Assembly (NCBI GenBank): GCA_905178155.1
Contig: CAJINV010000004.1
Location: 9,462,625 to 9,526,624 of the forward strand
From: Amoebophrya sp. A120
Lineage: Eukaryota > Protista > Dinoflagellata
Direction: 5' to 3'
DNA length: 64,000 nt
This document shows positions 10,301 to 59,300 of this stretch, in pieces. Under the pieces are notes generated by a model. That model was not told the origin of the DNA. It did no database searches and saw only the letters and a program-made list of their open reading frames with translations. A program made the translations under genes and the position numbers. How positions within the stretch are numbered: position 1 is the stretch's first letter; each line of letters opens with the position of its first letter.

Positions 10301-11673
10301 TTCCTTTACTTCAAAATGGAGTGCCTGGCGGAGGTGATTGGGTTCGAGGACCGACACAGGCTGAGAACAGCCTACCTCCAGCCGGAGTTTCCGTTTGATT
10401 TTCCAGAGACAAGAGCTGGCACCGCGTGGCTGCAGAAGAGAGAAAAGGAAAAAGTGGTGGAGTTTATCAAAAAGCCGAAATCGAAACGGGTGAACTACGC
10501 CAAATTCAAGGTCCACTCCCCCTTCTACGGGTTTTGGCCGGATTACGACTTCGAAGTAGATGCGGTCGTGCAGCCGGGAAGTGGTGAAGCTGCTGCTCCT
10601 GCTGGACACAATTGTAGCAATTGTTACATTCCGCTAGAGCGAGACGTGGACTTTCTTCGCCACTACAACAACCACCGAGGAGATGCAGCTGCGAGAAAGG
10701 TGGCATCAAGCGCGAAAGGGAACAATAGAGACGGCGAGGACCAGGTACAACTGTGTCAACAAACTCTGCCAGAAATCGCCAACCTTCGCACAGTCGTGCA
10801 GAGAGACGGAATTCGCTATCTTCCCGGTAGCTGCAAAAACTTTCCGGCAGAAAAGATCCGCGATGTGGTTGCCTGTCGCGTTATCCCAGTGTCGACCGGA
10901 GTGCCCGAACCCTGCACCCATCTTTATGTGATGACGAAAAATGCCGGAGCCGCGCCGGGATTGGACTCTGGAGCAACTGCTGATCAAGCGGCAGGAGCTC
11001 AGGTGCCGATGGACGTCGAGGAGAACGAAAATTATAACGACAGCGCAAGAGGTCCAGCGGCAGTCTCTCATTTTACAAACGGCACAATAAGACGTCGAGG
11101 TAGCGACCAACATCACAAAAACTTCCGCCTCTGCGGCTTCGTTCTTTCCGGTGGTTATTCACATGCCTTTATCAAAAGGAAAAATCCCCCCTCCCCATAT
11201 CAAAACGAGGTCTCTGATGCAGGATTTGCGTACACAAATAAGATTTGTCTTGCTGGAGAGGAATGCAGCCCCATACTAAGCCGAAGTAGAGAGGTTCTGG
11301 CCTAGGCGTCTAGCATGAGAAACGTCCGTGCTGTAGGCCCATCAGCATCACAAACCGCCGGCACAATGCTGCGGAGCTTGTGGAGTTGCCTTCTTGCAAG
11401 ACAGACGTGATCTGAGGTCTCAAATCAGCAACACAAATTTCCGGAAACATACCTTTTCGATATGGGGAGGGGGGATTTTTCCTCCTAATAGCCTTCGGAC
11501 GGGCGATCGGGTTGGGCTTCGTCGAGACAGAGGCTTACTCGGGCTACCTGTCATCTAACCAAGTCGACACTTTCTTGTACATGCGAAATACTACGTCGAA
11601 CTGTTACCACAGGGTTTACGTATCAGCTGATACAGATTTGGGACAGAGAACCAGTAGGAAGGATGTTGGGTAG
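7349..11673 (+). CDS. POP1: RNase P/MRP subunit POP1; exons 7349-8806, 9089-11169, 11496-11673 (~1238 aa)
   Basis: POP1 motif THVWHAKRFHM..WGWRLP and LHDRSY; POPLD-like FPFDFPET.AG..KPKSKRVNY..SPF; C-terminal GFVLSGGYSHAFGRAIGLG appears only after introner removal. Confidence 0.9.
8807..9083. mobile_element. Family A introner (277 bp)
   Basis: Family A TIRs; perfect TSD cggcg; joins KLSAA|AKKPIVDLM. Confidence 0.92.
11170..11490. mobile_element. Family C introner (321 bp)
   Basis: TIR ..ggaaaaatcccccctccccatatc; perfect TSD gcctt. Confidence 0.92.
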
Positions 11674-12226
11674 TAGTTGTACTTCGTGGAACAAGTGGCA
11701 CAAGTTCAAAATAATTATCGATCTTACTACAAGACGTTTCAACTACTTCAAGCAAAGCGACATTTGAATGATTTATTTTCTATCAACGAGCAGGACAACC
11801 AAGAACGCTAACGCTTGTACAATGCTAATCGAAAATTCCTGCGACGCATCGGATTTCGAACTCCAGCCTGTGTACGTTTTTGGCAAGAGCATGCTCAATC
11901 TCCGTTTTTTCGTTGTCGTGCTTCTATCTCCTCTTTTAGTACTATATTTCTTTTTCGTTGTGGAACGAAAACGAGGCACGAGACGAGACACTGCTCAGTC
12001 GAAGAACCCAAACAGAGTGACGCAAATCAAAGTTGCTGTTGGTGTTGCCGACAGATGAGGTGACGACGGAGATGAGAGTTTTCTTTCGTCACTTGTAGAT
12101 TTGGATTTGGTCTCGTCCTGGTCCTGGTCCTCGTCCACCTCGCGTTAAACATCATAGCTAAAACGAGTCAGTGTTTTTTGAAGTTGTTGTTCTTTCTGCC
12201 AATTGTTTCGTTCTGAAAATAAAATC

Positions 12227-15200
12227 ATGCAGGCTACTTCCAGTGCAATCCGCAGCCCGAACTCGTCCGGGCAGCTGCGGCCGCTGCAAATAGGCAGCTC
12301 CGCCGCAACAAGCAGCACGGCACCACGAGGAGTGCTGCCGCCAGGACCAGTAGCAGAACAACTTCCCGCAGGTGGTGCACCGCCAGCCACAACTATGTCC
12401 TCAGGTGGAGCCACAACTATGTCCTCAGGTGTAACATTTTCCCAGGCCGAGCAAGAGTCCGCGATTGCGGCCCGGCTGGACGCCTTGATTGCGGAGCGGG
12501 TGGAAGCGGAGGTCTCCGCGTACGACGAGTATCTTATGCTGCACTTGACAAACCGGTTTAAGGAAAACGAAGAGAAAATTCTCACACTAGTTGAGGACAA
12601 AGTCATGCGGCAACTGGAGGCGTCGGTCGCCCTCGCAGGTGCAGCTGCACATGATCAAGAAAACGCGAAGACCATCACAGCTGAAGACAGCAAATCAGAA
12701 AATATTAAAGCGTCTCGTACGACCGGAACTACGAGAGATCGGTTTTCCATCGTCGACGCGGACGAAGAAAGTGACGAGGCCGAAATGTTATTAAACAGTA
12801 GGCCGAATAATTCGAGGAAAGTAGACACCGCAACGTCTCCTTTACTGGCGGGTGCACCAGGTGACACCAGTGGTTCATCTCCACCATCGTCCACCTACGA
12901 AGCCGCAAGGATTATGCAGGACATGCGGATTTCCGCCATGGAGCGGCAGATCGAGCAGAAATTGCTGAACGAAGAGAACTACGAACCGCAGAAGTATCGT
13001 ACTCGTATAAATTATGCATGACAAGTTCCCTCAGCATGAGAAATAAAATTTGTAATGAGGATTTACCCTGAGAAAAAAATTTGTAATGCATGACTGCAAT
13101 ACGAGTGCGATGCTTTTGCACAGCATAAGAACGTTTTCGAACAGAAGATCACCGCCGAGGTGAGGAGTTTGAAGCAAACGATCGAAAGTATCAACTGCAA
13201 AAGTGTCGTACTCGTCGTAATTGCAATACTGCATGACAAATCTTCTGTTTTACCTGAATCAGCATGACAAATTCCACTCTTTCTTCTGGGCAAATTTGTA
13301 TTGCAATCTATACTAGTAAGTTACTTTTGCAATGCATGGAATGCCATCACAAGCAATTTCAGGAAAGCAGGAAAAAACAGGAGGTCGAGTTGCTGGAGTT
13401 TCAGAAGCGGATGAAGGCCGAGATGGAGATGAAAGGTATTTAAAAACATAAAAAACGAGGATATCCTTATCCATCGATATTCACATATATTAGAGGACTG
13501 CGTTCTTTAAAGATTCATCGTGTACAGTTTTTTCTACCGAAGTTGCTTTTTCACTTTGGTGTATAGTTTCACGCCTTTTAACTGGATCTGATCCTGCATG
13601 ATCCTGCTGGCGATGTATGGAAAACAATGAAAGTAAAAGTTATTTTCATTCATAACAGCCACGCCGATGCCGGACAAGAAACTTTCCGAGATGACATCCA
13701 CAGCTCCTACAACATCCGCGGAGCACGAGAAACTGCAAGCGAAAATTGCGGAGCTCGAAAGCCAGCTTTCCCGAGTCGTCGAAGGAGTCGATGACCGCTT
13801 GCAAGTATGCATTGCAAATATGTCTGGGTCTGGAAACTTGTGATGCAAGGAAGCGAATAGTGAAAGCACTGTAATGCGATCCCCAGCATGACAAGATTTG
13901 CCGTGGTTCTGAGTTGCGTACTTACACCGCATGAGAAACTGCGTTTTTGCATGACAGGCAAGAGGAGCTCTTCGCGGCCACGCAATACAGAGTTCAGAGC
14001 TATGCCAGACTAGCATGACAAATCTTGCAATCTCCCAGACCCAGACACTTTTGCACTTGATAGCAAGATCTAGCGGACGCCTTGGTCAAGCGGGCGAACG
14101 ACAATCAAAAACAAGTAAACGACAAGATCTACAGTTTGACGCAGGCACAAGTATTGACCCGCAGCGTCCTCCGGAAGGAGAACGATGCCAAGCTGCGGAT
14201 GAATCCGCAGGAGGTGGATGCGAAAGTCCGGAAAATTTTGAAAAAGCTCCTCGCCCAGACCTACGTAAAGACGGAAGAGACGACAAGGGAGTCTGCTGCG
14301 ATTGCGGATCATGCGGCGGAGGCGTTCTCGGACGGAGTACTGGAGACTACTACCTTTGAGCGCGCTACAGTGAAGGACGAGGAAGATGACTCAAGAACTG
14401 CGGGAGCAGCTGACGGCGAACTAACAGCACAGCAGAGCAAGAAGCGCGTTCCCAAGGCAGAAGGCGAGGCGCTCGCGGCTGGCAGTGCCGCGGCGCGGGC
14501 ACGATTGTCTGATTTGGAGTCGCGGGCGATGCAGATGCAGCTGCTATCCGCGATGACGGGCGGGAGCAGCAGTGAAGAACTAGAAGGAGCGACAAATAAA
14601 GTGTTCAACAACAGGGCTATCCTCGGCACGATGAAAGGGCAGCAGGAAGACTTTGAGCGGCAGCCCGAGACGAAGAATTCTACAGCAACCGATGGCACGA
14701 TGGCAGGGCAAACGGACGACTTTCACCGTGAGCCGATGACGAAAGTCTCAGCAAGTACAGTGTTGATGGGTGTACTTAAGTAGGTTCATCGTGTAGAAGT
14801 TGGGTTTAAGTAGTACTCAATTCTTCACAAACGATGAAATACTTCTGCTTTTTTTGTTGTTCCGTAGAGTACCGTCGTGAATAATCTTATACGCGATGGT
14901 ATCGCGATGCTTCAATTGCGTAAGCGGCAACTGCAACAGTTAGCCGCATATCATACCATCGTGGACAATATTATCCAGGATGTTGTTGCTGTCAGAAAGG
15001 AGTGCGATTTAAACATCCGTCATCGCAGCATCGTGCAAAACGTTTTGCGCGAGGGTATGCGTTGTGCTTTTATATACGGGCGCTGCTATGCATCAAGGGT
15101 CCATCACACGATACCACCCTGCAAAATATCTTTCAGCAGGTTATGATGCACGTTCCAGAATGATCGCAATTGTCGTATAATCGTGCAGGACATTCTCCAC

Positions 15201-18200
15201 ACCGCTCTTCTGGTTCTGGTGGTGAAGGTTAAGATTAAGCTTCACGTGCAATTTGTTTCTGGTAGAATAACAACAACAAGTGAAAGAACGACCAATCAAA
15301 TTAACCTCGCAGGTTCCGCCCAGCCACAACAAGCAACCAATGCTGACCGTGTCATCGTGCAGCCGCTCGGAGGTTCTTTCGAGCAGCAGCAACCTGCGAA
15401 TATTAACGTGGAAGATCCTCTCGACGTCTTTAACCGCGACTTGATCCAACGCCCGAAATCGATGGCCGCCGAGGCCATGCGGCGCTTCGGGCAGTTTGAC
15501 TCGACGAGCACCGAGGGTGGTGGAAGCAGCGATAGCATTCGACAGTCCTCCGCCGTAGTCCAGGAAGTATATGCATTGCAAATATGTCTGGGTCTCCTGG
15601 AAGAGTGTAACTTATCATGCTACATCTGGATCGTGAAAAAATTCGTGTTGCATGATTACCAAAAGAGGTCCACTTTTGAACATGTTTAGAGGCAGTTTCT
15701 CATGCAGGAAAGGCATGATAGAGATCTCACAGAACCTGTCATGCTAGGCCGTGCATGCCAGACCGCGGGGGTCATGGAAAACCTGCATGACAAACCTGGC
15801 ACTCTTCCAGACCCAGACATTTTTGCAATCCAAAAAGTAGTGCACACGACGATTGCGATCATCGAACCGGTGATTAGGAAGGAACTCGAAATATGAAATG
15901 CAAAAGCATCGTACTAAGTCTAAGTAGTAATCGCATTACAAATTCGCTCAGCATTACAAATGGAATCTCTCATGCTGATCTGCCTTGAGAAAGAGATTTG
16001 TCATACATAATTGCGATTACTACGAGTACAATAGTTCTGCAATGCATACGAAAGACAGGAGAGCAAATTGAGGAGGACGCTGCAGCGAACGCAGAACGAA
16101 GAGGACCTCCAACTTGGAGGAAAAACACCAGACAGTGGATATGAACAAAAGAAGTTTTCCTTCTTCTTACGCGCAAGTTCCCCGCCACCGATCTCTCTCA
16201 CTAGCGAGTTGAAGGCACAGAGGGAGAAAAACAAACTTCTGCGGTCAAAGACAACGCAGCAGTTTCTAGCGACGTATCGAAACCCGAATCCAGTGGTGGT
16301 CCCTTTTGCAGCTGCTTTTGGAGGTGAAAATAAGAATGGCGTGGGACGAGGAGGAGTTGACCAAGATGATACTCCTGGCACCAGCTCAACATCGCAGCAG
16401 AGTAGGGCGGGCACCGACGTGGTTCTGAATTACGCAAAGTCTTCTTCGTCTACCATCGCAGGCAACAGGCTAACGAGTCCGAGAGGGGGCACAACGAGTC
16501 CGAGAGGCACGACGAGTCCGAGAGGCACAACAAGCCCCAGAGGCACCAGTTCAACTCCTCGAGGGACCACCACGCGAGGGGGTGCAGCTTCAGCCTCAGC
16601 TAGTGCAAGTGCTACAACGGTTACAGCCGCTGCGGATAATAACAACTCCGCCGACCGCAGTATGCAGAGCTTTATGGAAGATAAACACGACCACACGAAG
16701 CTCCGCACCACGGCAAAATCGCAGCTGATGGCCGACGCGATCATCGACGCGTATGCTGCATTAGTTCCCACCGAACAGTTCCGTACAACTTTGGAGGATA
16801 TGCATTGCAAAAGTATCGTACTCGTACTAATTGCATTTATGCATTACAAATCTTTTTGTTAAGGCAAATCCGCATTACAAATTTAATTTGTAATGCTAAG
16901 CCAATTTGTAATGCAATTTATACTAGTACGACTACGATGCTTTTGCATTGCATAGAGGATGTGCAAAATAGAAACATGACGGAAGAAGAAGGAGTATCGT
17001 AAAGAAAAATCCCCCCTCCTCATATTGAAAACGCATCCGTCTGAAAATTTGTGATGCACATTTGTGACCTCAAATCTTGTCTGTCTTGCAAGAAGGCAAG
17101 TCCAGAGAGCCTCCTGCATTTTGCAGGCGGTTTGCGATGCTGTTGGGCTTAGAGCATGCACGTTTGTCATGCTAGGCGCCCACGTCAAAACCTCTCCACC
17201 GAGGCTTGACATATGCCTGCAGTCCTCTACTGCAAGACAGATCTTCTGATTTGTGTACGGAAATCCAGCATCAGAAACTTCGTTTCGATATGGGGAGGGG
17301 GGATTTTTCCTCTTGATAAGGAGTGAAGATCTGGCAGGAAGAGGCGCAGAACGTGTTAGCCCGTCAGTCCGTCCGCGAGGTTTTTCTTACCGAAAGACCA
17401 CTATCAAAATGAAAAATCCCCCCTCCCCATTATCAAAATGGAAGTCTGTAATGCGGGATTTGTATACACAAATCATTTTGTCATGCTAAGAGGGAAAAGA
17501 AAAAGATGCGGACTGTAGTGCTGAATGGCGTGGAACAGCCTTGCAGCTACAGCATGACAGGAGGCAGCTGGAAGTGGGAAACAGCATGACAAACTGCCTG
17601 CAAAAGAGGCCGCGACTGCGCCTCTTGGCCTTCTAGCAATACAAGGCGACTTGCGTACTCAAATACAACATCACAAATTTAGTTTTCGATATGGGGCAGG
17701 GGGATTTTTGTTTTTCCTTTTGATAACCAAAAATCCAAGCCTACGTCGACGCGGAAATCGCCCGGGCGCAGGAAGAGGTCGCGGAGGCCGTGCAGACGGC
17801 GATCCTGCAGGAAAGAGCAGTCACGGAGGGAATGCTGGACAAAATGACGCAAGACTTTGGGAGGACGAAAAGCACCAATATTAGAGACAATAGCTCTACT
17901 CTTGCGCAGGAAGATACGCAGCAGCTGCAAATGGAAATAGCAAATAGGACCCGCTTGTTGTCCTCTTCGCAGGCGTCACCACCGGGCGAGGATGTAGTTC
18001 ATGTGGGGGCAAGAGCAGCGGCCGGCGCTTCATCTTCATTTAGGTCCGCTCTACCACCAGTGGAAAATTTGCCAGATCTTGCGAAAAGGTCGCTTGTTCC
18101 GCAGAACTCTCGCACGGGCACGACTGAGTTTGACAATAAGTTCAATGAAATCGCCGCGAAAGTCGGTGATCTGCAAGCGAAGTTTCGGATATGCAGTGCA

Positions 18201-21200
18201 AAAGTATCGTACTCGTATAAATGCGTATACAAACTTCCTCAGCATGAGAAATGAAATTTGTAATGCGGATGTACCTTCAGAAAAAGACTTGTAAATGCAT
18301 GATTGCAATACGAGTAAGATACTTTTGCACAGGATATCGGACACTCGACAGCGACAACAAGCTCGGTGAGGTGGCCGCGAAGGTCGCGGCGCTGGAAGCG
18401 AAGCTGCGCGCGAGGGACAGCCTAGACAAGGAAAACATAACGGAGCAAAGGCGGCTGTCCCGGATGATAGAAAAGCTGAATCGCAGATTGAGCGCCATCA
18501 CGGAAAGTGGAGATAATATTTCTGGCTCAGCTGCGCGCAGCACCACGGGAGGTCCGGACTACGCTGAGCGAGGGCCCTCCATGCTCAGTGCCAGCACGAC
18601 AGGAACGACCACAGGTGCAGCTCCTACTGGCCAGCAAGACGCAGCTCCTGCTGAAGATCTTCTAGATCATGACCATTCGACGCCCGGAGTCCGGTTGACG
18701 CACGCGCCGTACGAGGAGCGCTTGCGGATGCTGGAGGGTTTAGTCACGGAAAAAGTCGAGGATCACGAGAAAAAACAAAAAGAACTTGACGAAAAGATAC
18801 AAAAGCTGGAAAGCAGGAAGGGAGGTTCATCTTCCGGAGACATAGCTGGCCGAGATCGGCGGTCGGGTGGTTTGTTGAAAGGAGATTTTGACAAGCAAAA
18901 ACAACCCGCCATAACATTGAACGAGCCGACAGAATTTTCCAAATGGGCACAGCAGACGCGAACAACTTTGCGAGACTCGAAGTCTGCTATCTTGTCAGAC
19001 GACGGAGGAGCTCGGGATAGCGGAATGACAATGATTGTCGGCGTGGGCGCTACAACTACAGGTATTGCTCCAGCTGCTTCCGGTTCTGCGACAGCTTCAA
19101 GTACTGCTCCATTTGCAGCTACCATTCCGGAGGAACAAAGTGACCGGATGACAACAAAGGCCGCTTCTACTTTGCAGGAGCCTGGCGCTGGTATAACAGG
19201 AACCGACAGCACTGCGGGCGGCCAAGAGGACGACAAAGACCCTGCTGCTCCACGACCTGCCGACGAGGAGCCCGATCATGTCAAGCGAAGAACCCAAGGA
19301 GCGACGACCCCCGGGGCCACTTCTGAGCTTACCGAGCTGTCCGCCCGAATGCAAACGATGATGGAAGAGCAGCATGCAAGTTTTTCCGAGCTGCTTGCCC
19401 GCGCGGCGAGTCAATTTGACGAACTGGACGGGAAGAGCCAGCGGTTGGAGGCGTATCCTGTGCAAAAGTATCGTACTCGTATGAATGCAAGTCTTGCACT
19501 ATTACAAACCTTTTTATTAAGGCACATCAGCATGACAAATTCCATTTCTCATGCTAAGGAAATTCGTATTGCAATTTATACTACTTAGTACGATACTTTT
19601 GCAGTTCATAAGGCGACCGTGGCGGACATTCGCGAACAGTTCCTGAGTTTTGGAAAAAGGAGTGAGAAAAGCATTGCGAAGTTGAACAAGATGGTGCAGC
19701 GCTCGCAAGGGGACACCGACGTGCCGCCGATAAAGGACAGCAGCGTTTTTCTGAGAAGTTCCGCAGATGGAAGTAGTCAGAGTACTAGAGATCGTCCCAC
19801 CAGCGCGAAAGACAGTTCCAATGTTCTTGATTTTGACGCAAACGAGAGAGGGGCGGGGACGGTTGCGGACGTGCGTCAGGAGTTCTTGCGGTCGGGGAAA
19901 GTTCCACCACCAGGTGCGGTGGGGGCAACGATGTCAACATCTCCACGGGGGGGTATGATGGTATCATCGTCTCCAAGAGGCACAATGTCACCGAGAGCAG
20001 GTCGAGGGGCGGCCTCTAGTACGACTTCCCCGAGAGCGGGCACGACAGCACCGAGAGGAGGCACCATGTTGTCACCACGAGGAAACGCCACGATGTCCTC
20101 TCCCCGTGCGGGCGGAGCTACGACATCGCCGAGGGGTCCGACGTCTCCGCGGGGTCCGACAGCAGCAGCGTCGCGAGGGACAATGTCTCCGCGGGGCGGA
20201 ACGATGACGTCGCCGCGAGCAGGGGGAACCACAACCAGCACGACCGGACCACAGCCGGCGGAATCTTCGGCCAGTATTGTAGTTCCTGGAGCACCGCAAA
20301 CACAAATGCACCCTTCTGAAGGCGACAGAGAAACAGCAGCACCATTTCCAGCTAACGATGAAAACAATCTCTTCGCCCCGCTAGAGCAGCGTCTCCAAGC
20401 CGCGGAAAACGCACAGATAGCACAGGCCAAACAACTGCAGGACCGCGTAGACACTTTTGAAGACAAAACGAGATCTCTGGTCCGCGAGGCGTCGAGCCAG
20501 TTGGTGGACTTGTCGGAAGCGCTGACGGAAGCGAAGATGAAGAACGAAAAGCTTGCGAAACAGCTGCAAGCAGCGGAGAACAACCTCGCCGCGCTGCAGC
20601 GGTCAAACGCGATCCGCATTGATACCGTAGACGCGAAGCTGGACGGGGTGATTGGTGTGCAGAAGCAGTTCGTGAGACAATCGCAACTCGACACGGTGGT
20701 GGCGAGCATTACGGACAAGCCGGTTCTTAGTTTGAGTCGTGGCGGACCGGCCGAAGAAGCTTTACATGAAGGACCAGATGGAACAAAAAACAGTAAGAAG
20801 CCGTCAACTGCAGCTATGGCCACAGAGAACGAGGAGTCTGGAGAGCAGGAGAAACCTGGCGCACGTGGCATGAATTCAGACGCAGAGTCGGACATCAATC
20901 ACCCCGGGGAGCCGACACCTCTGCACGTTGCGAGCAAAATGATCACAGCTGCTGAGTCGGCACCTAGAAGCGGAGCAGACCATGTTGGAGCTTCTTCCAC
21001 CTCCGATAGTACTGTCGTGATGCCGATGCTGTTGCAGCTTACCGAATCGGTTGAACATTTAGAGGACGCGATGCGCAACACTTTGCCGGCGGTCCGGGCC
21101 GCGAGTGACCAGGCGCAGACGAAGATTACGGAAATTGACAACGAGAAGAGAACCTTGCAGAACCAAATAGAGGACTTGGAGGCGAAATTGGCAAAGTTGC

Positions 21201-44125: not shown

Positions 44126-44821
44126 ATGTCCTTCTCGCTCGCCCCGCATCCCATCGGGATCAAGTATTGGACCAACATCTGGGCCGAAACGATATCCAGG
44201 AAAAAACTACACCCATCCCCATCCACTATTTGCATGACAAATAGTGATTTTTTTGCATGTTTTGCATGACAAATTGGATGGGGATAGGTGTTTTTTCCTG
44301 GATAAACGAAAGACAAACCCTTCACCGAGTGCCTATCCCGGTTGACAGTTTTTTTGGTTTTTCCTGACTCTTCCTAATCTGTAAAAGCAAATTCTAGCTG
44401 CATTTTATGCATGATGAATAAAGCAGGAACTGCACGACCTGCAGTGGCATAGCAAGGAATTTGACCACCTACTGGTGTTCCATGCATTTTCATTTTGCAA
44501 GAACCGACTCCATACGATTTGCAGGGTGAATCGATGAGTCTTGAAACTGTCAGGAACGAAGCAATCATAGATTTCAACCCGGGATAGCCACACGGCAAAT
44601 TCCAGAACTGGTACCAGAACAAATTTTACAAGTCCTTCGGCCGCTACTACTACCGCCACCGTGCCGGACGGATGGGCGCGTTTGCGCCGTTGGTGGTCGG
44701 CGGGTTGGCCTTCAAATTCGTCTCCGCGTACTACGGCATTCTCCGCGACAATTCCGCCGCCATCGACGCGGCCAAGGCCTACGGACAGGGCGGTTACAAG
44801 TGCAACCCAGTGCCGAAATGA
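44126..44821 (+). CDS. Small membrane protein, probable myzozoan-type mitochondrial ATP synthase subunit f (106 aa); exons 44126-44192, 44310-44333, 44592-44821
   Basis: Spliced product MSFSLAPHPIGIKYWTNIWAETKDKPFTECHGKFQNWYQNKF..AFAPLVVGGLAFKFVSAYYG..AAKAYGQGGYKCNPVPK. The C-terminal AYGQGG..NPVP matches my recollection of apicomplexan subunit f. Absent from the ORF track. Confidence 0.72.
44193..44304. mobile_element. Family I introner (112 bp)
   Basis: TIR tatccaggaaaaaa; perfect TSD aacga. Confidence 0.92.
44334..44586. mobile_element. Family J introner (253 bp)
   Basis: Short TIR tatcccggttga / tcaacccgggata; flanks gtgcc/gccac; frame needs element+5 nt removed. Confidence 0.78.
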
Positions 44822-48694: not shown

Positions 48695-51600
48695 ATGGGA
48701 GGTGGTGGAGCTCCAGCTCCTGCGCCTTCATCTTCACCTTCCACGAATGAACAGGATGTACTAGTCGTGCCACGACCTGCGCCTGCACCTGGCGCAGAGT
48801 TCGCCGAGAAGCACGAACGCATGCAGGTCCTGGTGGTGGAGGAAACACACGCAAAGGAGCACACGAGAGCGCGCGCGACCGACGTGTGCGAGGAACAAGT
48901 AGAACATCAAGTATCACTATCATCTGCTGTCGCGAGCGACGTTGAGGTCTCGGTGGACGACGTTTTGCGCAAGCGACGCCAGGAGCAAGGGCGATGCTCT
49001 CCCTCCTCCGAGCGCTTCGGATTCCGCTCTGTGTTGAGACACAGCTTATGGGATTCTCCAATGCCGCATTGTGTCTGCTGTTTACTATACATAATTTTGT
49101 CATGCAAGGCTAGCATGCATGAGCACGTTTTGCATACAAATTGAAATTTGTAATGGATCTCCATACTGTTTTTAAGTGTGTCGAGAACTTGCCATCTTTG
49201 GAAGCAGCTTGATAGTGTTGGAAATTTGTTTGAAGAGCAAAAAAAATTTTGCATGACAAACTCATGTAACTATAGCTAGCAATTGCAATGTAATGTTTGA
49301 GACCTCCATACCGCTTTCACAAAACGTTTACCGTCGTCGCCAATTTCTCCAACTCCGTTGATATGCCTTGAAAATTAACCATATCATCCAATTTGTCATA
49401 CAAAACATGGATTGAAGTCGCCTTTCGTCATGCAAAAAGTGGATGGTTAATTTTGATTTTCAGTGCATAGCACAATGCACGTTTCTCCAGAATTGGGCTC
49501 CCACCGTGTTCTTCCCACTTGTCGCCGCTATGATTTGGACCATAATACGGGGGTTAGGGCCGAGAGTGCTCTTTTTCCTCAGTGGATCGTCTGCGGGGCG
49601 GACGTGCGCTCTCACGCCGGCGGCTTTTGATGGTGTCGTGCATTTGCAGACGCAAGGAGAAGTCGAGGCGAATTATGAAGCAGCTGGTGCCATGTTGGAG
49701 GCCATTGGTCCACCGCAGCTCCAGCTTCAAGCAGAAGTAGCGAAAAATATTACTGCAGCAACATCTTCTTCTGGCTCTCCTGGCACAACAGCTGCGTCCT
49801 TTTCGGTGTTTAGCGAGTGTCGCCAGTACAATTGGACGACCACGTCCACGATCACGAACAGCTCATCAACCCAGGTCGTTCAGTTCTTGTGTGGAGCCAG
49901 TTCTATTCCGTCTTTCGGTCAGATTCTTCTCCCGCCACCCCTGTTTTCCGCCTTCTGGGATATTGGAATTGTGTACGGCTTCCACTTGCATTTGCACATG
50001 TTGGGCGCCCGCATCACACACGCTCTTCCGCCCACGGGGGTGCCCGCCGTTTTGTTTTACGGGAGCTCCCTTGTCCTGTGCACGCTCGTCTCGGTCGCGC
50101 TTGGTTTCGCAGATTATGAACTCGTCCTTTCGGGGTGGACGCGGACTTCTGCGATGATCGGATCCGTCGTACTCTTCCTCTCGACCTTTGTTTACGCTGC
50201 GGTCATCGCGTTGCTCAACATCCACAAACGCGAAAGTGATCTGAAAACGACAAGCAAGAGAACGACCACTACACCAAAAGTAAAGATGGAGGCGCTGGTA
50301 CAAATACAATCTGCTATACCTGTATCACCAAGTAAAAATCAGGAAGAACAAGAAGAAGAAGCAAATGAGCAGCGGGTCGTAGGAAAAAATAAAGCGATAT
50401 TCATAGCGTCGACTACGGAACAAGCCGGAGCCCACTCCGACGAAAGAAACAACAGCTATCCGGTTCCGGAGGTTGTTGTCCCGCAAGGCGCGCACAAAAT
50501 AACAGGGTTTGCGAATGCCTTTATCGGCTCACACGGTACCGATAAAACACAAACTGGCAGTGGTGATACAATCGCGAATACAACGGACTCACACAGTTTC
50601 GAAAAGTTTGCGGGGACGAACAATCAAACGGTGAGAAGCGAAGAGGGCGACGCAGGAGTTGTAGTCGCGAGCAAGAATTGTTCTCATTTAGATGTAGAGA
50701 CATCGAAGAACGAGGACACAAAAACGCAAATAAGCGACAAAGAAATGAAGAGCAAGCCGAAACGACGCAACATGTTCGTGACGCCGGCGTTGCGGGGTCT
50801 TTCCGTGTTTGTCATGACTGGTGGACTGACGTTGTGCTTCGGTTCGGTCTTTTTCTTGACGAATTCCATCCTCGTCGAGTTTGTGCTGGATCCGCTTGCG
50901 GCAAATACGGCCATCGCCCTGCCAGTTCGATTGGCGATCGAGCTTGCCATCTCCCTCCTGGTGTTTCTCATCTGGGTCCCCTTGGCGGCGCACTACTGGG
51001 GGAAATCCGTCGCGATTGCGATCTTTGTACCGCTGCCCTACTGGATTTCCGCCGAGGTCTACGAGGAGAGTCAGCAGCCGGGTAGTCATTTTGCCGGCGA
51101 GGGTGATGATGCAAAGCGGGAACGCGAAAAGCAGCGCAAACGCCGCATGAGGGAAACCTTCGAACATATTCCTTGAAAATCAACCATACCCATCCAATTT
51201 GTCACGTAAAACATGAAGGAAGTTCTGTGTTTGTCATGCAGATGCAAAGAAAGAATGGGGATGGTCAATTTTCAGGGAATAGAACAGATTAAGATCGTCT
51301 ACTTCTTTTCGACAGACTTGATTCGCATCACGCTCGGACGGGGTATTTTGATGCGGTACAGTGGGTATTCGGTTTTGCTACTCCTTCTCACCGACTTCGT
51401 CTACCACATGTGGCACTTTGGATTTCGCCAGCGCGAGTCTCTGCTGCTTTTCAGTGTGGTCGCCGCAGCAAAAAATCGCAACGTCCGGCGAATGCAGTCG
51501 ACGCGTTTTCCCGTCTGGTTTCGTGTGATCGACCTGTGGACGCAGTTTCGCAACCGCGCCCCACTCTGGTTCACGATAGGCTGGCATGAGACCTGGGATT

Positions 51601-54600
51601 TCGCGGAAATGCTTAGTATTCGGGAGACCGGGGAAGGGTTGAAGAAAACAACTGACGTATCATATGTAAAAACGTCCCCACACCAGAGTCAAGTTGGGAA
51701 CCTAGGAAGACAAATCCACAAGTTTTGGGAGCCACGCATAAGAAGTTGCAGTCCGTAGTGTAGTGCATGTAAGCAAGGACCACCGCATCACAAATCCATC
51801 TGCTTATCCTGTTTACAGCATTACAAATTCTAGAACTCGATTGGAAATGCCACTCATGGAGATGCGCATCACAAATCTTCCTGTAATCGCAAATCTGCAT
51901 GATAACTATGGGGTGGGAATGGTTTTACTCAGGATATGACGACGATGCGCGGGTCCGGAAGGAAAGAACCGCGAAGACGTACAAGGATCTGACTATATCC
52001 TGTGCAAAAGTATCGTACTCGTAGTAATTGCAATCATGCAATACAAATCTCCCTCTTAAGACAAATCAGCATTACAAATTTCATTTTTCATGCTGAGGAA
52101 ATTTGTAATGCATTTATACCACTGCGATACTTTTGCAATTCATAGACGATGTCTTTCAGCAACGTGCAGGTGATTCTGAAGCGCGTTCCAAACCATGTCT
52201 GGGACGAGATGTTTCCCGATGATCTTTCCATCGGACAGATTACTTCTACCGTCGCCTGCTATCCTAGGGAAAATTTTCACCAGCACGAACTAACATCCTC
52301 TTCTTCAGTTTGTAAATGCAATAGAATCACAATCAGAACCACCAGTGGTTTTACGCGTGCTTATGATGTAATGCTAATGTTAATGTTGTCGTTCTGCATT
52401 ATTACGCATTGATTGAGGTGACGGTGAAGATTTTGTTCAGGATACCAGGGGAAGGAGAAGTACTGAAGAAACTGATCGATCGTCGCGAAGGTCCCACTCT
52501 TCGGGCGCAAGTTTGACGGCCGGAACGCGCAGATCAAACTCGGCGGCGAAGTTGACGAAAACAGGGAGTGACAAGTGGAACGCGAAGGCGGGTCGCGGAG
52601 GTCGACACCATGAAAACTCGCGAAATAAAAAAACACCTGGAGGTGTTGCGCAGATCATAGATGCTGACCTGCGTGCAACGGTCGATCAAAAGCAGGACAT
52701 GTTCCGAGAGACCGTCGATACGCGCGCAACAATGGATTCGCAGTGCGAAATTGTCGATGTGCACGACGAGACCACGCGAGATCGGTTCTCATCGAGGATG
52801 TCGGAGAACAATACGCTCTTGCACTCGCCGGCACGAGTATCAACTGCTCCTTCGGCCGTCTTCTCGTCAACATCTCTGTCACTCACGGAACATCAGAGAA
52901 CGGAGGTTGTTCCCGCTACCGGCAGTGACGCAGCTGCTGCGCAGCTCCGTGGACGGTCGTGCTCCGGAGCAAGTGCGGCGACGGGCTCCAGCAAGCGGTT
53001 ACGGCTTGGACGGTAGTTAGAAATCCCGGCCGCGGATATTGTGCGGATATTATGACTCAAATGGAAAACGTGCGACAGCTTTTCTCTCGTCGCGGCCTGT
53101 GAGTCGAAGTGTTGACGGTGGCAGTAGCTCACCGTCCGAAGATGGTGGTGATCAGTGCGTCAGCTCAGCGAAGCTCCGTGATTGCGTGCAGGAGGAGGTC
53201 GCTCGTAGGTATTTATATTGGAAAATCGGCACGCCGCTATGCGTGTTTGTTTGGTTTCTGCATGGCATGCATTTTGCTACATTTTCGTGATAGTGATGAC
53301 ATGCCTTGAACCAAAAGGCAGAAGGCTTGGCAGGAGCCACGCCACGCAGCGTAGAGGAAGCTACCGCAAAATACATCGAGACGGAAATAGCCAGGCCGCG
53401 GCTGAATGACATCCAGAACGCCTCAGGGTTTAGGTCGGTGCAAGCCCTCCTTCGGCGAAAGAGCCCAAAAGCGCGGGTACTTTTTTGCACGTCAGTAGTG
53501 GGAGCGTATGCTTTCCCTTTTTTTGTAATGCGCCAGACTGCTTGATGATGCCACGTAGATGAAGGGCCCATAAGCATCATGAGCTGACAGAAGCAGTGCA
53601 GCTGGGATTTATCCTTTCTTGCCAAACACCTCGCAGGTCGCCATTGCGCTCGAGCTTGCAGATATCCACTACACCAGAATGATGACGATCAAATTGGCGG
53701 AAAGTGCGCACAAAACGGTGCAAATATGAATTGCAGATACGTCTCTGCCTGGGTGTGGAAATGCAAATATGCGTCGCAAATATGCATTGCAAGTATGCAC
53801 TTTAAATATGCATTGCAAACATGTCTTGCAAATATGCATTGCAAATATGCATTGCAAATATGCCTTGCGAATATGCATTGCAAATATGCATTGCAGATAT
53901 GCAATGTGCTCCGGAGCAAGTGCGGCGACGGGCTCCAGCAAGCGGAGCAGGATTTCCGTGCTCTCATCTACCCCAAATGTTCTCCGGCTCAGCGGTCCCC
54001 ACACATCTACTAGCAGGCCTCCAAGGGCGAAAAGCGCAGACACGTGGGCGCGACGAGCAGGAGCACCTGCGCCAGCAACGGAGCAGACAGCGCGCATCCT
54101 TCCTGAGCACAACGAAGGTGGTGATGCGACTGAAGACGCACGCATGAGGCGTGGTCAAAACAGTGCGCCGGCCGGCTCGGTGGGTCATAGTGCTTCTTTC
54201 TGGAGGTGGAAGCGGCAAAGAAGCGTCGCCCGTCAATTGTCTTCCACCGATGTGCTCCCAGGTAACCCAATCCCGACATCCCGTCTGCCTTCCACATCTT
54301 CTCTGCAGCGCCCGTCGGTTCGCAGTGTTACGAGTCGGCTCAGTTCAGTAGTCCGTGGCGCATCCTCCTTCCGCAGGACCGTGCTTCTGCCCGCGGAGCA
54401 GCACGTGGAGGACGTCTCCGCGTGTGTATTAGCGCACGAGTACGTATATCACACAGAAAAAAGCTAGCAGTGCAAAAGCAAAAAATACATGAAACACCAT
54501 GGTGGCTGCATCGATGAAGATGAGCAACGTTTTTGCATAGCCTATTAGCAATATGCTATGGGCGGCCTCTTCAGGAGACCAGGGACAGACAGTGACAGAT

Positions 54601-55541
54601 ACTTCATATGAGCCCCCCCCGCTAGTTTTTTCTCTACTGGGATAACGTGGACATTTTTCAGGACTTCGTCTGGTTTTACCGCGATACGCTCTTCACGCGC
54701 TACCAGGTGCGCGCCATGGTTCGCATCTTCACTTCCCTGGCCTGGATCTTCATTCCTGCAGTCGCTTTCTTGACCGACATCCGCCACTATCCCGGCTTCT
54801 CTACGGATTTGGTCACTAACGTCGTGTACCCAGTTTCATTTTTCTGCTACGACTATCCTGTGCAAAAGTATCCCACTCGTATTGCAGTCATGCATTACAA
54901 ATCTTTTTCTCAAGAAGGTGAATCAGCAATACAAATTGTATTTCTTTTTCTCATGCTGAGTAATGCATTTATACGCGTGCGATATTTTTGCAATTCATAA
55001 CGACTGCTCCGAGTGGATTACCCTGACTTTTTTTTTCTTTTTCGCCGACGCGGAAGCGAAGCACCGGTTTATATCAAATGCAAAAATGTCTGGGTCTGGA
55101 AGGTTGGAACTTGTGATGCTAACTTTGGACTCTAAAAAAATCTGTATTGCATGACCAGCAAGAGGAGTCTAGTTTGTGCTACGCGGGGAGGGCGTTTGTC
55201 ATGCGGAGTAGGTATCAGGAAGCCCTCTAAAGATATGTGATGCTAGGCCGTGCATTGCAGACATCCTGGTCCATGCAAAACATGCGTGACAAATCTCAGA
55301 ATCTTCCAGACCCAGAAAGTTTTGCATTTGATGGTTTACGTCGCTCTTCAACTCAGCCTTTAAGCAGAAAACCAGCGACCTGCGGCTGGTGTGCATGCTG
55401 CTGGCCGTTTTCTTTGCCGTGCTGTGCTTCGGCACCCGCTGGAACCCGAGGAATCTGCGATTGCTTCGGGCGGATACGGGGATTGCAGATTTATCTTGGG
55501 CAGACGTGCAAAATGTCTGCGCCGAGGCATGGGCGAGGTAA
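48695..55541 (+). CDS. Multi-pass membrane hypothetical protein split by 9 introners and one direct-repeat-bounded insertion
   Basis: ORFs 48533, 49443, 51213, 52149, 52513, 53769 and 54647 chain in frame; several hydrophobic helices; start and stop uncertain. Confidence 0.7.
49047..49310. mobile_element. Divergent family B introner (264 bp)
   Basis: TIR tatgggattctc / gagacctccata; TSD cagct/ccgct. Confidence 0.8.
49362..49469. mobile_element. Family K introner (108 bp)
   Basis: TIR tatgccttgaaaattaacca; TSD decayed (gttga/gcaca) but the +5 rule restores frame. Confidence 0.78.
51167..51281. mobile_element. Family K introner (115 bp)
   Basis: TIR tattcc.tgaaaat; perfect TSD gaaca. Confidence 0.9.
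51658..51936. mobile_element. Family D introner (279 bp)
   Basis: Perfect TSD tgacg. Confidence 0.88.
51996..52144. mobile_element. Family E introner (149 bp)
   Basis: TSD gacta/gacga. Confidence 0.88.
52260..52444. mobile_element. Family L introner (185 bp)
   Basis: TIR tatcct..aaaat.ttcacc; TSD cctgc/ccagg; frame restored. Confidence 0.78.
52999..53905. mobile_element. 907-bp insertion flanked by perfect 40-bp direct repeats of exon sequence
   Basis: gtgctccggagcaagtgcggcgacgggctccagcaagcgg occurs at 52959-52998 and 53906-53945. Confidence 0.8.
53718..53905. repeat. Tandem array of ~13-bp AAATATGCATTGC units
   Basis: Directly visible degenerate tandem copies at the right end of the insertion. 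Confidence 0.88.
54447..54644. mobile_element. Family M introner (198 bp)
   Basis: TIR tatc..agaaaaaa.ctagc; TSD acgta/acgtg. Confidence 0.82.
54854..54999. mobile_element. Family E introner (146 bp)
   Basis: Perfect TSD acgac. Confidence 0.9.
55072..55333. mobile_element. Family A introner (262 bp)
   Basis: Perfect TSD gttta; ends ATG. Confidence 0.9.
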
Positions 55542-56355
55542 GTAAGTAGAACAATGAGGGGACACGCCTTTGGGTTCGGATCGAGTTCATCTTGTAGTTG
55601 AATTGAATTCTATAAATTAGTATTTTTTTCAATGGAGTACTTTTGGCGCACCGCATACAAAAATACTGAGTCTTTTACTGCAGCTCTTATTTGCCTGTAC
55701 GTCGACTAAAGCTGTAAAAGCAGAGGCCTTGGCGAGAAAAGGGAAAGCAAATAGCAAAACCAATATAGAAAAGCTCCTACATCAAAAGATATAAAAGATG
55801 TCGGAAGCATAGAAGACACCATCGCTACTGCAGTGCAGTTGTGTTGGATAAAAATATCTGTCACGTAGAACAATTTGAATTTGGGGCGTGATGGCTTCGA
55901 CCGTATCGGCGAGGAGTATAAACTAATTGTGATTTCATCAAGAGCGCACATGATAAAAGCAACTCTGATTCCATTTTTTTGCGTTTGGATACACTGTCGC
56001 TTGAGAGGACGGAAATGCAGGCGAAATGTGATGGAGTCCGACAGAACAAAAGAGAACGGCGGCAGGAGAGATCACAAACGCCGAGCTTGTGGACGCAATG
56101 AGCCACCTTGTTACGCATAATTGAACTTCTTCGAGCTTTGCAAAATAATACGAGTACTAGATTGATGTTTTTTATACGTACGTCACACCCGAGCGTCGTC
56201 GCCGTAAGTGTAGTGACATTGTAGCAGGTTTTTATCTCAAGCACCGAATTCTGGATCTGGAAAAATCCAAAGAAATGGCTTCCTCCTGTAGTGCACCAAC
56301 CAAGAGAAAAGGACGACTGGTGCAACGACCAAGAGGAAAGGAAGTTGCGAAGAAG

Positions 56356-59300
56356 ATGCAACTACTTCTGCACATTCTAGCATCAACAGCCAACGTCGCA
56401 AACGCCTGGACCGACACGGGACACATGATAGTGGCCAAAATTGCCGCGGACGGGCTGATATGAATTGCAAATGTGTCTGGGTCTGGAAGGTTGCAACTTG
56501 TGATGCAAATTTCACACAACACAAAGATCTGTGATGCATGAACGGCAAATGCGGCCCAAAACTTGGCACCAAAACAGGGAATTTGTTATGCGGATTAGGG
56601 ATGGGGACACCTTCTCAAGACGTGTGATGCTAGGGCCTGCATGCCAGACCTCCCAGATCATGCAAGAGCAGCATGGCAAATATCTGGACCCATCCAGAGC
56701 CAGACATGTTTGCATTTGATAGCTGAAGCCGGAGGAGCTCTCGTTTTTCCACAATTTGACGGACATGCTGTACCACCCCTCGGTGAAATATCCAGGAAAA
56801 AACACCCCTCCCCATCCAAATTGTAGTCATGCGAAACATGCATAAACTCCAGTGTCTGTCATGCAAAAAATGGATGTGGATGGATGTTTTTTCCTGGATA
56901 TGAAAGCAGCGCGCACCGGGGACTTTGTGAAGCCGGTGGACACGCTGTGGGGCGTGGCCAGCTGGAACGATAATATTGACATCGCGTATTTTTACGAGGA
57001 AGTTTTTGATGGTGCCAAAAGTTCTGCATCAACACGTCGGAAACGAAGAAATTTGCGACTCTGCTGTTCTTTCAGCTGCCGTGCCGCATCACTTAACATG
57101 TTGACGCGCGCGCGCCCACGCATTTCTCCATGCAGCACGAGCGCCGTTGGCCCCCTATCTTTCCTGCCTTTGCCGCGCCGCATTGCGCCTTCGCCGCCAC
57201 CGGCATTTTCCGTTTTGTTCAAAATAGCAGGTGATGATGTTTGCATTGACGCCGCCGGCACTGCGATTATTTCAGTCGCTAAGCACAGTCGTTCATCTCC
57301 TCCCCATTTGATGTTTCATCTGTTGCGTATGTCAAAGAAGATGAAGATGAAGAGAACACTGAAGCTGAACGAACAAGAAGATAAAAATCATGATCAACAA
57401 CTCTTATCAGGTTCCACTTTCAGAAAACGTGGCACTTTACCGACACGGTGGTGCGGCTCGACAAGGGCTGTAGATTGATCGGCGACGGACAGAAGATACC
57501 TGCTGCAGGAGGGCCGCATCTTCAGGAGGCTGGGAAGATGATCGCAAACAGGACAACAATCAGCCCGCTGCTGTCAACGTCGTCCACGACTCCCAGGGCC
57601 GCCGCGGTGCACGAACTCAACAAGGGGCACCAGCAGCACGTCGACTCCACGACGCCGAGGGCGGTCGGCAAAAGCGAGACGGGGCTGAGAAGTCTCCTCG
57701 GTGAAAAAGACAAAGAAGAAAATGACAAGCAGATGATGTCGATGAGTACCGACTACGGGGGATCAAACACAAACACCTGCGACAGCACCCACCCGCCCCG
57801 GCCCGACGAGAAGCACCAGGACGTTATCTACGGCCTGACCTCTGCCTACTACGGAGTGACCAGCGAGTATGGGTGTGTCAGGATCGAAAACGTCAAAGTT
57901 GAAATGATTTTTAATAATGCATAAAATGCATGACCCGAGGTACGTGTGTTGCAGAGCAGGCAATGGAGGCCGATTGTAAGCCTGTTTGGGGTTACAGCTC
58001 GAGCTGCTAAAGTAGCATGAGAAAATCGCTCTTCTTTGCCTCAACAGCATTACAAACTGGATTTAGTGACCACCGAAATTTGTCATGCGCCACTTCAAAA
58101 CTGGGTTCCAACTGGCATCCATTTTATGCATGACAAATCATTTGAACTTTGTCGATTTCGATGCTGACAGTTCCATAGCGAGGTGAGCAAGTGGAATGAC
58201 CCGGCCATCAAGAAGTTTCAGCAGGCGTGGTGGATTATGAAATGCAAAAGCATTGTACTAGTATACATTGCATTACAAATTAGCTATAGCTCAGCATTAG
58301 CATTACAAATGAAATTTGTAATGCTGTTTTACCTTTAGGAAAGAGATTTGTCATGCATAAACAGCAATTACTACGAGTGTGATACTTTTGCGGTGCATAT
58401 GGATCCGCATGCTGATCCACTTTCTCGGCGACCTGCACCAGCCCTTGCACGCCGCCGCGGGCTGCAGCGCGCGCCACCCAGAGGGGGACCTATCAAATGT
58501 AAAAATGTCTGGGTCTGGAAGATTCTGACACTTGTCATGCACGTTTTGGATGAGCCCTGATGTCTGTGATGCATGCCCTAGCAGCACAGATTTTTTGAGA
58601 GCTTCTTGATGCCTAAGTTGCATGACAAATGCCCTCTCCGCGTAGCAAGAATCACATTCCCTTTGGTACTCATGCAATACAGATATTTTTGGAATCCAAA
58701 TGCAGCATTACAAGTTGGACTCTTCCAGACCCAGACATTTTTACATTTGATAGGACCGGGGCGGAAACGAATTTGGGATCGAGACGAACATTAAGAATTA
58801 CTTCGAGGGTATGGAATGCAAATATGTCTGGGTCTGGAAAGTTGTGATGCTAAAAGTGAATGAGATTTCCACTGCAATACGGAGCCAAGCATGACAAATT
58901 TTTTGGCTGCCATGTCTTACGTATTCCGCGTGGCAAACTGCGTTTTTGCATGAAAGGTAAGACGGCTTTTTCGTGTCTACGCATCACAGATTCTTGAGTC
59001 GTGTCAGACTAGCATGACGAGTCTCGCAATCCCCCAGACCCAGACATATTTGCAATGCATAGAGGGAAGGGCGACCTTCGTCTCGGAGCTGCACTTGCTC
59101 TGGGACTTAGCGGGGGGCAGCTACGCCGCGGGACCGAATTGGCCGCTGAACGCCACGGGAGAGGCCTTCGTGGCGGAGGAGGCCAAGGTACTAGTACTTA
59201 CTTCGGTTCCGTTTCGCGTTGGTATGTTTCTCTCTTCGCAGCGCCGTGATGCAGCCGAGCATTTCGAATTCGTAATAAAATCGTTGCACCCCCGGTCCTC

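Follow-up and report, generated by a model that had tools for sequence, protein, structure and literature searches.

Introner elements of Amoebophrya sp. A120 appear to stay in the genome and to leave pre-mRNA in either orientation with one fixed register

Introduction

The window analysed here, a stretch of 64,000 nucleotides from Amoebophrya sp. A120, carries members of the same repeat families inside genes in opposite orientations, which raises the question of how one element can be removed either way. An earlier note on this DNA held that, spliceosomal signals being polar, two-way removal implies a symmetric signal, and it offered either hairpin-guided RNA excision or a precise DNA-level excision like that of TA-bounded ciliate internal eliminated sequences (IES). 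The elements themselves are already known: Farhat et al. 2021 (PMC7789003) described introner elements in A120 among its non-canonical introns, with a motif of TAT, seven variable bases and three or more A, and with direct repeats of 3-5 nt (5 bp in the legend of Fig. S19). In the accessible part of that source, splice sites are variable relative to the hairpin and their border unknown (Fig. 3 legend), how the elements are spliced is an open question, and neither "strand" nor "excis" occurs in the text.

Results and discussion

Element families and their ends

In the window, 45 elements were catalogued in families with terminal inverted repeats (TAT...ATA). The inverted-repeat scan, into which the TAT/ATA ends are partly built, returned 40 rows in the window and 0-2 in each of 10 shuffled windows; a scan of the window for further elements with degenerate repeats gave none. 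The ends match the A120 introner motif of TAT, seven variable bases and an A-run. The direct repeat measures 5 bp and lies outside the TA, being exact in 32 of the 45 window elements and in 92 of 104 copies outside the window. Within the arms, positions 9-14 pair in 37-44 of the 45 elements, and positions 4-7 are often mismatched. All 45 folded more stably than their shuffles (z < -2), as is expected for any inverted-repeat element.

A subterminal motif, TGTNATGC, and its reverse were found to be about 65- to 100-fold denser inside the elements than outside. Its core occurs in 10 of the 12 families, 31-33 bp ranks among the most frequent spacings, and one element (46158) lacks it. Inverted repeats, a duplication of fixed length, no coding capacity and many copies fit miniature inverted-repeat (MITE) or other non-autonomous DNA transposons; element bins in the DNA-like run X1 reached thousands of times the unique depth. 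A relative's protein (P0002) aligns gap-free, at the protein level only, across three insertion points. Among the best 30 BLAST rows against 176 outside loci no orthologous unique sequence was seen, an Rfam search gave no match, and the family A arm matched none of the viral contigs searched. The elements likely spread as miniature DNA transposons.

Opposite orientations and host genes

The ten elements of the five pairs, listed without strand, are:

8807..9083, family A element (pair A) in the POP1 gene; 5-bp direct repeat exact; removal read from the frame
55072..55333, family A, reversed relative to 8807; final bases ATG, not ATA; host probably +
11170..11490, family C element (pair C) in the POP1 gene; removal read from the frame
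16995..17318, family C, reversed relative to 11170 and also to 17402-17725, its neighbour in the gene; removal read from the frame
25075..25309, family B element; RNA-like contig 14 (run X3) lacks it
26183..26421, family B, reversed relative to 25075; 244 (239+5) bases missing from that contig as well
33453..33661, family G, within the U2AF-large-subunit-like gene; 4 of 4 runs skip 214 bases
41818..42026, family G element, opposite to 33453, in the DEAD-box helicase gene; no RNA joint among those listed
44193..44304, family I; runs X3 and X7 each skip 117 bases
56789..56900, family I element, opposite to 44193, in the likely S1/P1 nuclease gene

All ten begin where the earlier note had placed them, and its reverse-complement pairing was borne out, with 5 of 5 pairs aligning better as reverse complements. 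Full-length identity in reverse versus forward alignment was 0.85 versus 0.64 for pair G (33453/41818, both 209 bp; interior without arms 0.85 versus 0.56), 0.84 versus 0.77 for pair I (44193/56789, both 112 bp; interior 0.75 versus 0.59), 0.80 versus 0.66 for pair C (11170/16995, 321/324 bp; interior 0.78 versus 0.60), 0.77 versus 0.72 for pair B (25075/26183, 235/239 bp; interior 0.73 versus 0.67) and 0.76 versus 0.65 for pair A (8807/55072, 277/262 bp; interior 0.73 versus 0.57). The pairs are thus diverged family members in reverse complement, 76-85% identical, and not identical copies.

The host genes and frames are:

7310..11673, + strand, RNase P/MRP subunit POP1 gene; POP1_N, POPLD and POP1_C split by two elements
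15147..31889, + strand, 4,700-codon host frame crossing 12 elements; open after removal of element+5
32928..35788, + strand, U2AF-large-subunit-like gene with four elements and four GT-AG introns; weak colinear TIGR01642 matches (NCBIfam)
40041..43614, + strand, DEAD-box helicase gene; contains elements 41146, 41425 and 41818
48503..53016, + strand, 1,127-codon host frame crossing six elements; six of six skipped in one X7 contig
56161..59304, + strand, likely S1/P1 nuclease gene with six elements; one Pfam match just below the cut-off

The statement that all ten elements sit in + strand genes held well for seven of them, through the POP1 domains (8807 and 11170), the 4,700-codon frame (16995, 25075 and 26183), GT-AG introns in the same contig (33453) and the helicase (41818). 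It was moderately supported by reading frames for 44193 and 56789, and weakly for 55072, where 98/66 codons are open and the codon model did not favour +. A Pfam scan of one long exon of the 4,700-codon frame gave no match, and searches for annotated full-length products of this gene and of POP1 found none, which is weak evidence.

The frames also speak to the junction expected of an IES. In ciliates with TA-type IES the DNA is cut, one TA remains, and the element is lost from somatic DNA. Leaving one TA broke 5 of 5 genes tested, and removing the element plus five bases opened 5 of 5. A TA duplication with an IES junction was accordingly rejected.

Removal from transcripts

Additional elements with informative joints, again without strand, are:

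49362..49469, family I element, opposite to 44193; repeats 2/5 alike; 113 (108+5) bases skipped
51167..51281, family I, reversed relative to 44193; skip of 120 bases
44334..44586, element found through an RNA joint; repeats 2/5 alike; 258 (253+5) bases skipped
35074..35337, family A, repeat copies mismatched; the transcript keeps 4 or 5 bases of the left one
51996..52144, family D, repeat copies mismatched; 4 to 6 bases of the left one kept
52260..52444, single-copy element with mismatched repeat; 3 or 4 left-repeat bases kept; register upper bound
5575..5907, element; its joint in A120 protein P0001 requires 4 or more bases of the left repeat
5966..6200, family A; its joint in P0001 allows no more than 4 bases of the left repeat
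24766..25018, family A2 element; removal suggested by 51 letters between aligned pieces of contig 14
33695..33959, family A; skip of 270 bases
34708..35031, family C; skip of 329 bases
49047..49310, B-like; skip of 269 bases
51658..51936, relative of element 5575; skip of 284 bases

In RNA-like contigs, exactly the element plus five bases was missing at at least 15 of the 34 elements covered, including both orientations of families B and I; the other 19 had no joint among those listed and were not counted as retained. Twelve of 15 listed joints sit at elements, each skipping the length plus five, and the remaining three come from GT-AG introns of the same contig. A second set of joints adds three elements. 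These runs (X3-X7) consist of assembled contigs whose RNA status is a guess supported by their GT-AG joints, and the raw RNA runs X9 and X10 gave only 71 and 3 partial reads on the window. The same element is therefore removed either way, as had been claimed: the B pair is absent from a single contig, and in family I removal was observed for 44193 and for its opposites 49362 and 51167. Among the ten paired elements, removal was seen in RNA-like contigs for four (25075, 26183, 33453 and 44193), and for the other six it is based on reading frames or a relative's protein.

All of this RNA evidence derives from cDNA, and a hairpin with flanking direct repeats is a classic template-switch substrate for reverse transcriptase, so that the joints might be artefacts of that kind. 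We regard this as extremely improbable, since the skips are exact even where the repeats are 2/5 alike and conserved proteins require the removal.

A fixed register that follows the transcript

Every locatable junction fits N|TAT...ATA|NNNN, in which the intron begins one base before the left arm and ends four bases after the right arm (-1/+4). Four left-repeat bases kept is the sole value common to 13 joints, with the upper bound set by two elements (52260 in one X7 contig and 5966 in the annotated protein). Protein P0001, an "unnamed protein product [Amoebophrya sp. A120]" that is 99% identical over 99% of the query, agrees with this register at 5575 and 5966. The register was also kept at 44334 and 49362, whose repeats are only 2/5 alike, so pairing of the repeats is not needed. 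A mirror-image register, in which the cut turns with the element, is excluded by seven elements; no single family has informative repeats in both orientations. In the contigs, junction position, which the earlier note proposed to compare between orientations, fits one register that follows the transcript rather than the element.

Because the register is lopsided along the transcript, removal likely takes place at the RNA level. Precise DNA-level excision in some life stage would account for the symmetric TA-containing ends and the exactly restored frames. It is nevertheless strongly disfavoured, and we consider it very improbable: besides the broken frames and the lopsided junction, the duplication is 5 bp and lies outside the TA, and the DNA-like run X1 keeps the elements. 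In that run (flat depth 40-44), eight unique pieces end 24-112 bases inside elements, which holds for 16 of 16 ends among those listed; this is one run of contigs, which drop rare alleles. In addition, runs X4 and X5 contain the interior of the single-copy element 44334, and the depth of bin 45252-45915 is zero, which indicates that the element is transcribed. Of the two earlier options, hairpin-guided removal at the RNA level by symmetric ends was supported, and TA-bounded, IES-like excision was not.

Under this register 12 of the 45 introns start with GT, 3 end with AG and none has both, unlike U2-type GT/GC...AG introns. T at +4 was found in 44 of 45 window elements and A at -7 in 45 of 45. 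Changes of the first arm base number 5 in the transcript-3' arm versus 0 in the 5' arm among 146 strand-called outside copies, and 2 versus 0 in the window (pooled 7:0, p = 0.016). Five of these seven polar changes remain compatible with U-G wobble pairing, and the set therefore does not point to donor recognition in particular. Two further candidates for an invariant base were rejected. An A at +3 failed at one outside locus with G at +3 in the 5' arm (L025, strand uncalled by the codon model and read as minus from long minus-strand frames), and the A at -7, considered as a branch point, is G at another (L005).

Proposed mechanism

Taken together, our favoured reading, held with moderate confidence, is that A120 introner elements stay in the genome and are likely cut from pre-mRNA by a relaxed spliceosome predicted to use the fold-back as a ruler. 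The premise that polar signals bar two-way removal does not hold: an inverted repeat shows the same 5' sequence both ways, and two-way spliceosomal introners are reported in the accessible part of a preprint (bioRxiv 10.1101/2020.10.14.339549). Since the arms are inverted, either orientation would offer the same donor-like start, N-U-A-U. The paired arms may then bring the intron ends together, the fold-back of the two ends is predicted to act as the ruler of the spliceosome, and the 3' cut would be set by distance and not by AG. We give slightly better than even credence to a ruler-type mode, in which cuts placed one base before and four bases beyond the terminal stem would turn any element with such ends into a perfect intron, whatever its orientation and 5-base target, with U at +2 as the sole base still required.

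The spliceosome is the presumed catalyst. According to the accessible part of PMC7789003, 83 of 89 spliceosomal proteins were found in A120, 15% of its canonical introns share the repeat layout of the elements, and its U1 snRNA is reported missing. The missing U1, the rarity of AG ends and the lack of a branch-site consensus in the elements, where one was sought, stand as observations against a spliceosome.

The same register could instead arise, again at the RNA level, if a nuclease and a ligase outside the spliceosome recognised the hairpin and released full-length circles, as proposed for euglenid nonconventional introns. The absence of a GT-AG rule and the reported lack of U1 would fit, and euglenid introns pair +4,+5 with -7,-6 (PMC3935182), an offset similar to +2/-5 here, and reportedly leave as circles (PMC11282704). 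We judge this possible but unlikely: element starts match A120 canonical donors at +2 to +4 (all four GT-AG introns seen in the window start G-T-A-Y), the T at +2 is polar, no such enzyme is known in A120, and G-U is not in excess of A-C in the arms. In sense orientation these counted 173 versus 150 (p = 0.22), so selection for pairing was not detected, which counts against the fold-back reading as well; one of five position bins gave p = 0.03, uncorrected.

That result and the frequent mismatches at arm positions 4-7 would also suit a protein bound to the arms or to the motif (TGTNATGC and reverse, on the RNA or the DNA template), which would flag the element ends and bring in the splicing machinery; the hairpin would then be incidental to the transposon ends. 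The enrichment of the motif inside elements, its core in most families and its regular spacings point the same way. Subterminal repeats can be transposase-binding sites, which explains them equally well; element 46158 has no motif and no binding protein has been identified, and we hold this alternative to be improbable.

Comparison with known systems

The window elements share with the published A120 introners (PMC7789003, accessible part) the organism, the TAT + 7 + A-run ends, inverted and direct repeats, hairpins and RNA-seq support, and they are repeated families with TAT-type ends and a repeat within 3-5 nt, removed in RNA without GT-AG. They differ in the single -1/+4 register, the uniform 5-bp repeat, the two orientations and the shared inner motif; relative to what is accessible of that account, the fixed register, the polar T at +2 and the motif common to families are new.

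Introner-like elements of Polarella glacialis and Aureococcus anophagefferens are likewise derived from DNA transposons, with several classes working in either orientation and splice sites partly provided by the duplication, whereas they use G[TCA]...AG-type sites, one of which the target must supply, and A120 accepts any 5-base target without AG (bioRxiv 10.1101/2020.10.14.339549, as far as accessible). In Fritillaria borealis, MITE-derived introns with inverted repeats and duplications are removed by an adapted spliceosome; they prefer AG-AC/AG-AT ends and a TAC target, in contrast to A120, which has no end preference beyond +2 to +4 (PMC11282704, accessible part).

Euglenid nonconventional introns also have non-canonical ends, which a terminal stem holds together at a constant distance from the splice sites, and a MITE origin has been proposed for them (PMC3935182; PMC11282704). 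They carry CA/TG at +4,+5/-7,-6, whereas A120 has TAT/ATA at +2 to +4 and -7 to -5, so that the T at +4 and the A at -7 do not match the euglenid bases; the euglenids are also an unrelated lineage, in which intron circles are reported (PMC11282704). Finally, Paramecium-type IES resemble the elements in being short, in interrupting coding sequence with a TA close to either end and in their precise removal, but in A120 the TA is lost together with the element, the direct repeat has 5 bp and the elements persist in the DNA-like run.

Implications

For elements whose splicing is an open question in the accessible part of PMC7789003, a single transcript-following -1/+4 register gives exact predictions, covering the positions of lariat or circle junctions, the bases that a minigene must keep and the re-annotation of non-canonical introns. 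An IES-like DNA excision system is no longer needed in Amoebophrya A120. If the ruler-type mode is true, thousands of "variable" A120 splice sites would reduce to one rule, and a spliceosome, or its replacement, would choose the 3' site without any AG. If neither orientation nor target sequence matters, nearly every genic insertion would be harmless, which would explain how these elements invaded the genome.

Element inventory and orientation

All ten coordinates paired in the earlier note (family G, 33453/41818; I, 44193/56789; C, 11170/16995; B, 25075/26183; A, 8807/55072) start with TAT and carry an inverted arm closing in ATA, with the exception of 55072 (ATG). The members of each pair aligned better as reverse complement, also when the arms were excluded, which bears out their description as reverse complements. 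A scan for TAT...ATA ends returned 40 rows in the window vs 0–2 per shuffled window (n = 10 shuffles). After three rows that paired the ends of different elements were discarded, and seven elements identified via BLAST and one via an RNA joint were added, the catalogue comprised 45 elements of 108–379 bp, or approximately 15% of the window. Seven families were present in both orientations within the window. In the outside set (at least 176 loci, gathered by scanning a metagenome for the family A arm), strand was assigned to 146 of 239 elements with a codon model built from the window genes, and family to 114. Both orientations were therefore common in these loci, with family D possibly leaning to one.

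Orientation counts by family: window; outside loci (codon-model strand)
Family A: 6/4; 27/31
Family A2: 2/1; 13/20
Family B: 1/2
Family C: 3/1; 3/3
Family D: 4/6; 13/4
Family G: 1/1
Family I: 1/3

Family A copies were found by the hundreds in a public metagenome assembly (contigs JACKZZ01...), together with copies of C and D; identity of the family A copies to the nearest window copy had a median of 81% and reached at most 93%. Between 5575 and 59061, elements were clustered, with 21 of 44 gaps ≤140 bases vs 4.9 expected and 10 gaps of 44–56 bases vs 0.46 expected (0/20,000 simulations). In the outside loci, which were selected around elements, 59 of 101 gaps were ≤140, with a peak at 30–50. 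The motif TGTNATGC, common to families with unlike arms, and its reverse had 57 and 62 matches inside elements (~6 per kb each) vs 5 and 3 outside, two of the outside matches lying within GT-AG introns (33230, 34202). Motif spacings of 31–33 and 39 bp predominate. Other sequences in the window were as follows.

1–390: tandem array at the window start, 18-bp unit
1243–1363: family A right half without a left arm
1692–2070: family B element, longer through an internal insertion, yet removed in P0001, a public A120 protein
53749–53917: tandem array, 13-bp unit, similar to the family A/D arm start
62091–63460: 1,370-bp element, TAT...ATA ends, arms of ~460 bp at 70% identity; 8-bp direct repeat, a second duplication length; starts 13 bases past a stop codon; no strict motif match inside and no further copy in the window or loci

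Target-site duplication and reading frames

A 5-bp duplication outside the TA was exact in 32 of the 45 window elements, while other repeat lengths (2–10 bp tried) were exact in at most 7; among the metagenome loci it was exact in 92 of 104 complete copies. Excising each element with one repeat gave frames free of internal stops in five genes with 25 elements between them, among them a frame of 4,700 codons across 12 elements. When one TA stayed behind, or the element was excised without a repeat copy, an early stop arose in 5/5 genes. The spliced helicase aligned gap-free over three junctions with P0002, a relative's protein; P0003 has a 15-residue gap in this region. POP1 domains were in order across elements 8807 and 11170.

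Removal from transcripts and retention in DNA

The RNA status of runs X3–X7 is a guess, but they behave like RNA: GT-AG introns are among their joints, and bins between genes are empty. Between 33300 and 53200 (17 elements), 15 of 17 joints were listed. Twelve lie at elements, each skipping the element length plus 5, which leaves five elements without a joint among those listed; the remaining three are GT-AG introns, on a contig shared with four elements. Between 8700 and 28200, 14 of 17 elements lack a joint among those listed. On contig 14 of X3, 244 bases are skipped at 26183, and the pieces around 24766 and 25075 are separated by 51 letters, as many as would remain with a loss of length plus 5 at each of the two. 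Removal in either orientation, as the earlier note had proposed, was observed in two families: B, within a single contig, and I (44193 vs 49362 and 51167).

In the DNA-like run X1, unique depth was flat (40–44), and all 16 ends of the eight unique pieces listed reach 24–112 bases into elements; no element-free allele is therefore evident among the joints listed in this single run, whose contigs drop rare variants. The interior of the single-copy element 44334 was present in X4 and X5 at a depth of ~3. A 107-codon gene at 44126–44830, in which two elements flank a 24-base exon, was covered deeply in X7 and scantly in X3–X5. At 8807–8840, ~70 raw RNA reads from X9, a run otherwise unmapped, join a family A arm to other sequence; they likely represent a retained element at another locus of a related strain.

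Junction register

Mismatches between the two repeat copies show, in the transcript, which left-copy bases were kept.

Left-copy bases kept at transcript joints
35074: 4–5
44334: 4–5
49362: 4–5
51996: 4–6
52260: 3–4
49047: 2–6
33453: 1–5

The other joints of the 13 were uninformative, and four bases is the sole value fitting all 13. Junctions in P0001 gave at least 4 bases at 5575 and at most 4 at 5966. The intron would therefore be N-TAT...ATA-NNNN. Two elements whose repeats are alike at 2/5 positions hold the same register, an observation that speaks against repair by microhomology and against template switching.

Precise DNA excision, the IES-like half of the earlier note's two hypotheses, appears highly improbable. 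Were the DNA cut symmetrically, one would expect the junction either to be centred or to flip, in the opposite orientation, to a single base kept. The flipped value is excluded by seven elements (~1 in 128 under random orientation), a result that spans families, each with informative repeats in one orientation at most. Moreover, X1 retains the elements, and the one-TA-left junction breaks every gene considered. Removal almost certainly occurs at the RNA level, all routes taken together.

Mechanism and arm polarity

The hairpin-guided RNA removal of the earlier note fared better, and in spliceosomal form it is the route we somewhat favour. The elements would have inserted as non-autonomous DNA transposons with a 5-bp duplication; the arms may then fold back in pre-mRNA, with a relaxed spliceosome cutting 5' at a donor-like N|UAU and the 3' cut placed by distance. 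Two-way removal had been considered incompatible with polar spliceosomal signals; this does not hold, since introners in either orientation have been described in Polarella and Aureococcus (bioRxiv 10.1101/2020.10.14.339549; 10.1101/2022.06.06.494994). The four GT-AG introns start GTAC, GTAT, GTAC and GTAC, matching N-T-A-Y. At arm base 1 (intron +2), outside copies, which are predicted introns possibly from an organism other than A120, showed five changes in the 3' arm and none in the 5' arm, with one more uncalled. With two and none in the window, the combined ratio was 7:0 (p = 0.016), and 5 of the 7 changes still permit U-G wobble. Base 2 changed four times in the 3' arm and once in the 5' arm (L025, an outside locus, A to G), and base 3 once and twice, respectively. 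Among arm pairs, the G-U excess over A-C was not significant. All 45 elements folded with z < -2 (vs 15 shuffles each), as expected of any inverted-repeat element. The U2AF-large-subunit-like splicing factor gene (32928–35788) itself holds four AG-less introns (weak colinear matches).

A separate nuclease-ligase removing the elements from RNA is less likely than the relaxed spliceosome; for the fixed stem offset, the closest analogue is found in euglenid nonconventional introns (PMC3935182; PMC11282704). It is quite improbable that a protein marks the ends through the shared motif.

Relation to known introners

A protein search returned P0001 of Amoebophrya sp. A120 at 99% identity. Farhat et al. 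2021 (PMC7789003) describe A120 introner elements with the same end motif, direct repeats of 3–5 nt and RNA-seq support, report no U1 snRNA, and call the splicing mechanism of introners unknown. PMC12130899 and PMC12005148 confirm A120 introners and state that other Amoebophrya strains use GT-AG. Since these introners are published, the elements were already known. A term search of PMC13326754 returned no mention of Amoebophrya. In mostly open literature, no paper was found to state for A120 that the register is fixed or that removal is independent of orientation; Figs 3 and S19–S25 of PMC7789003 may already show part of this. The feature is real and the system known, and the register rule is sharper than that found in print.
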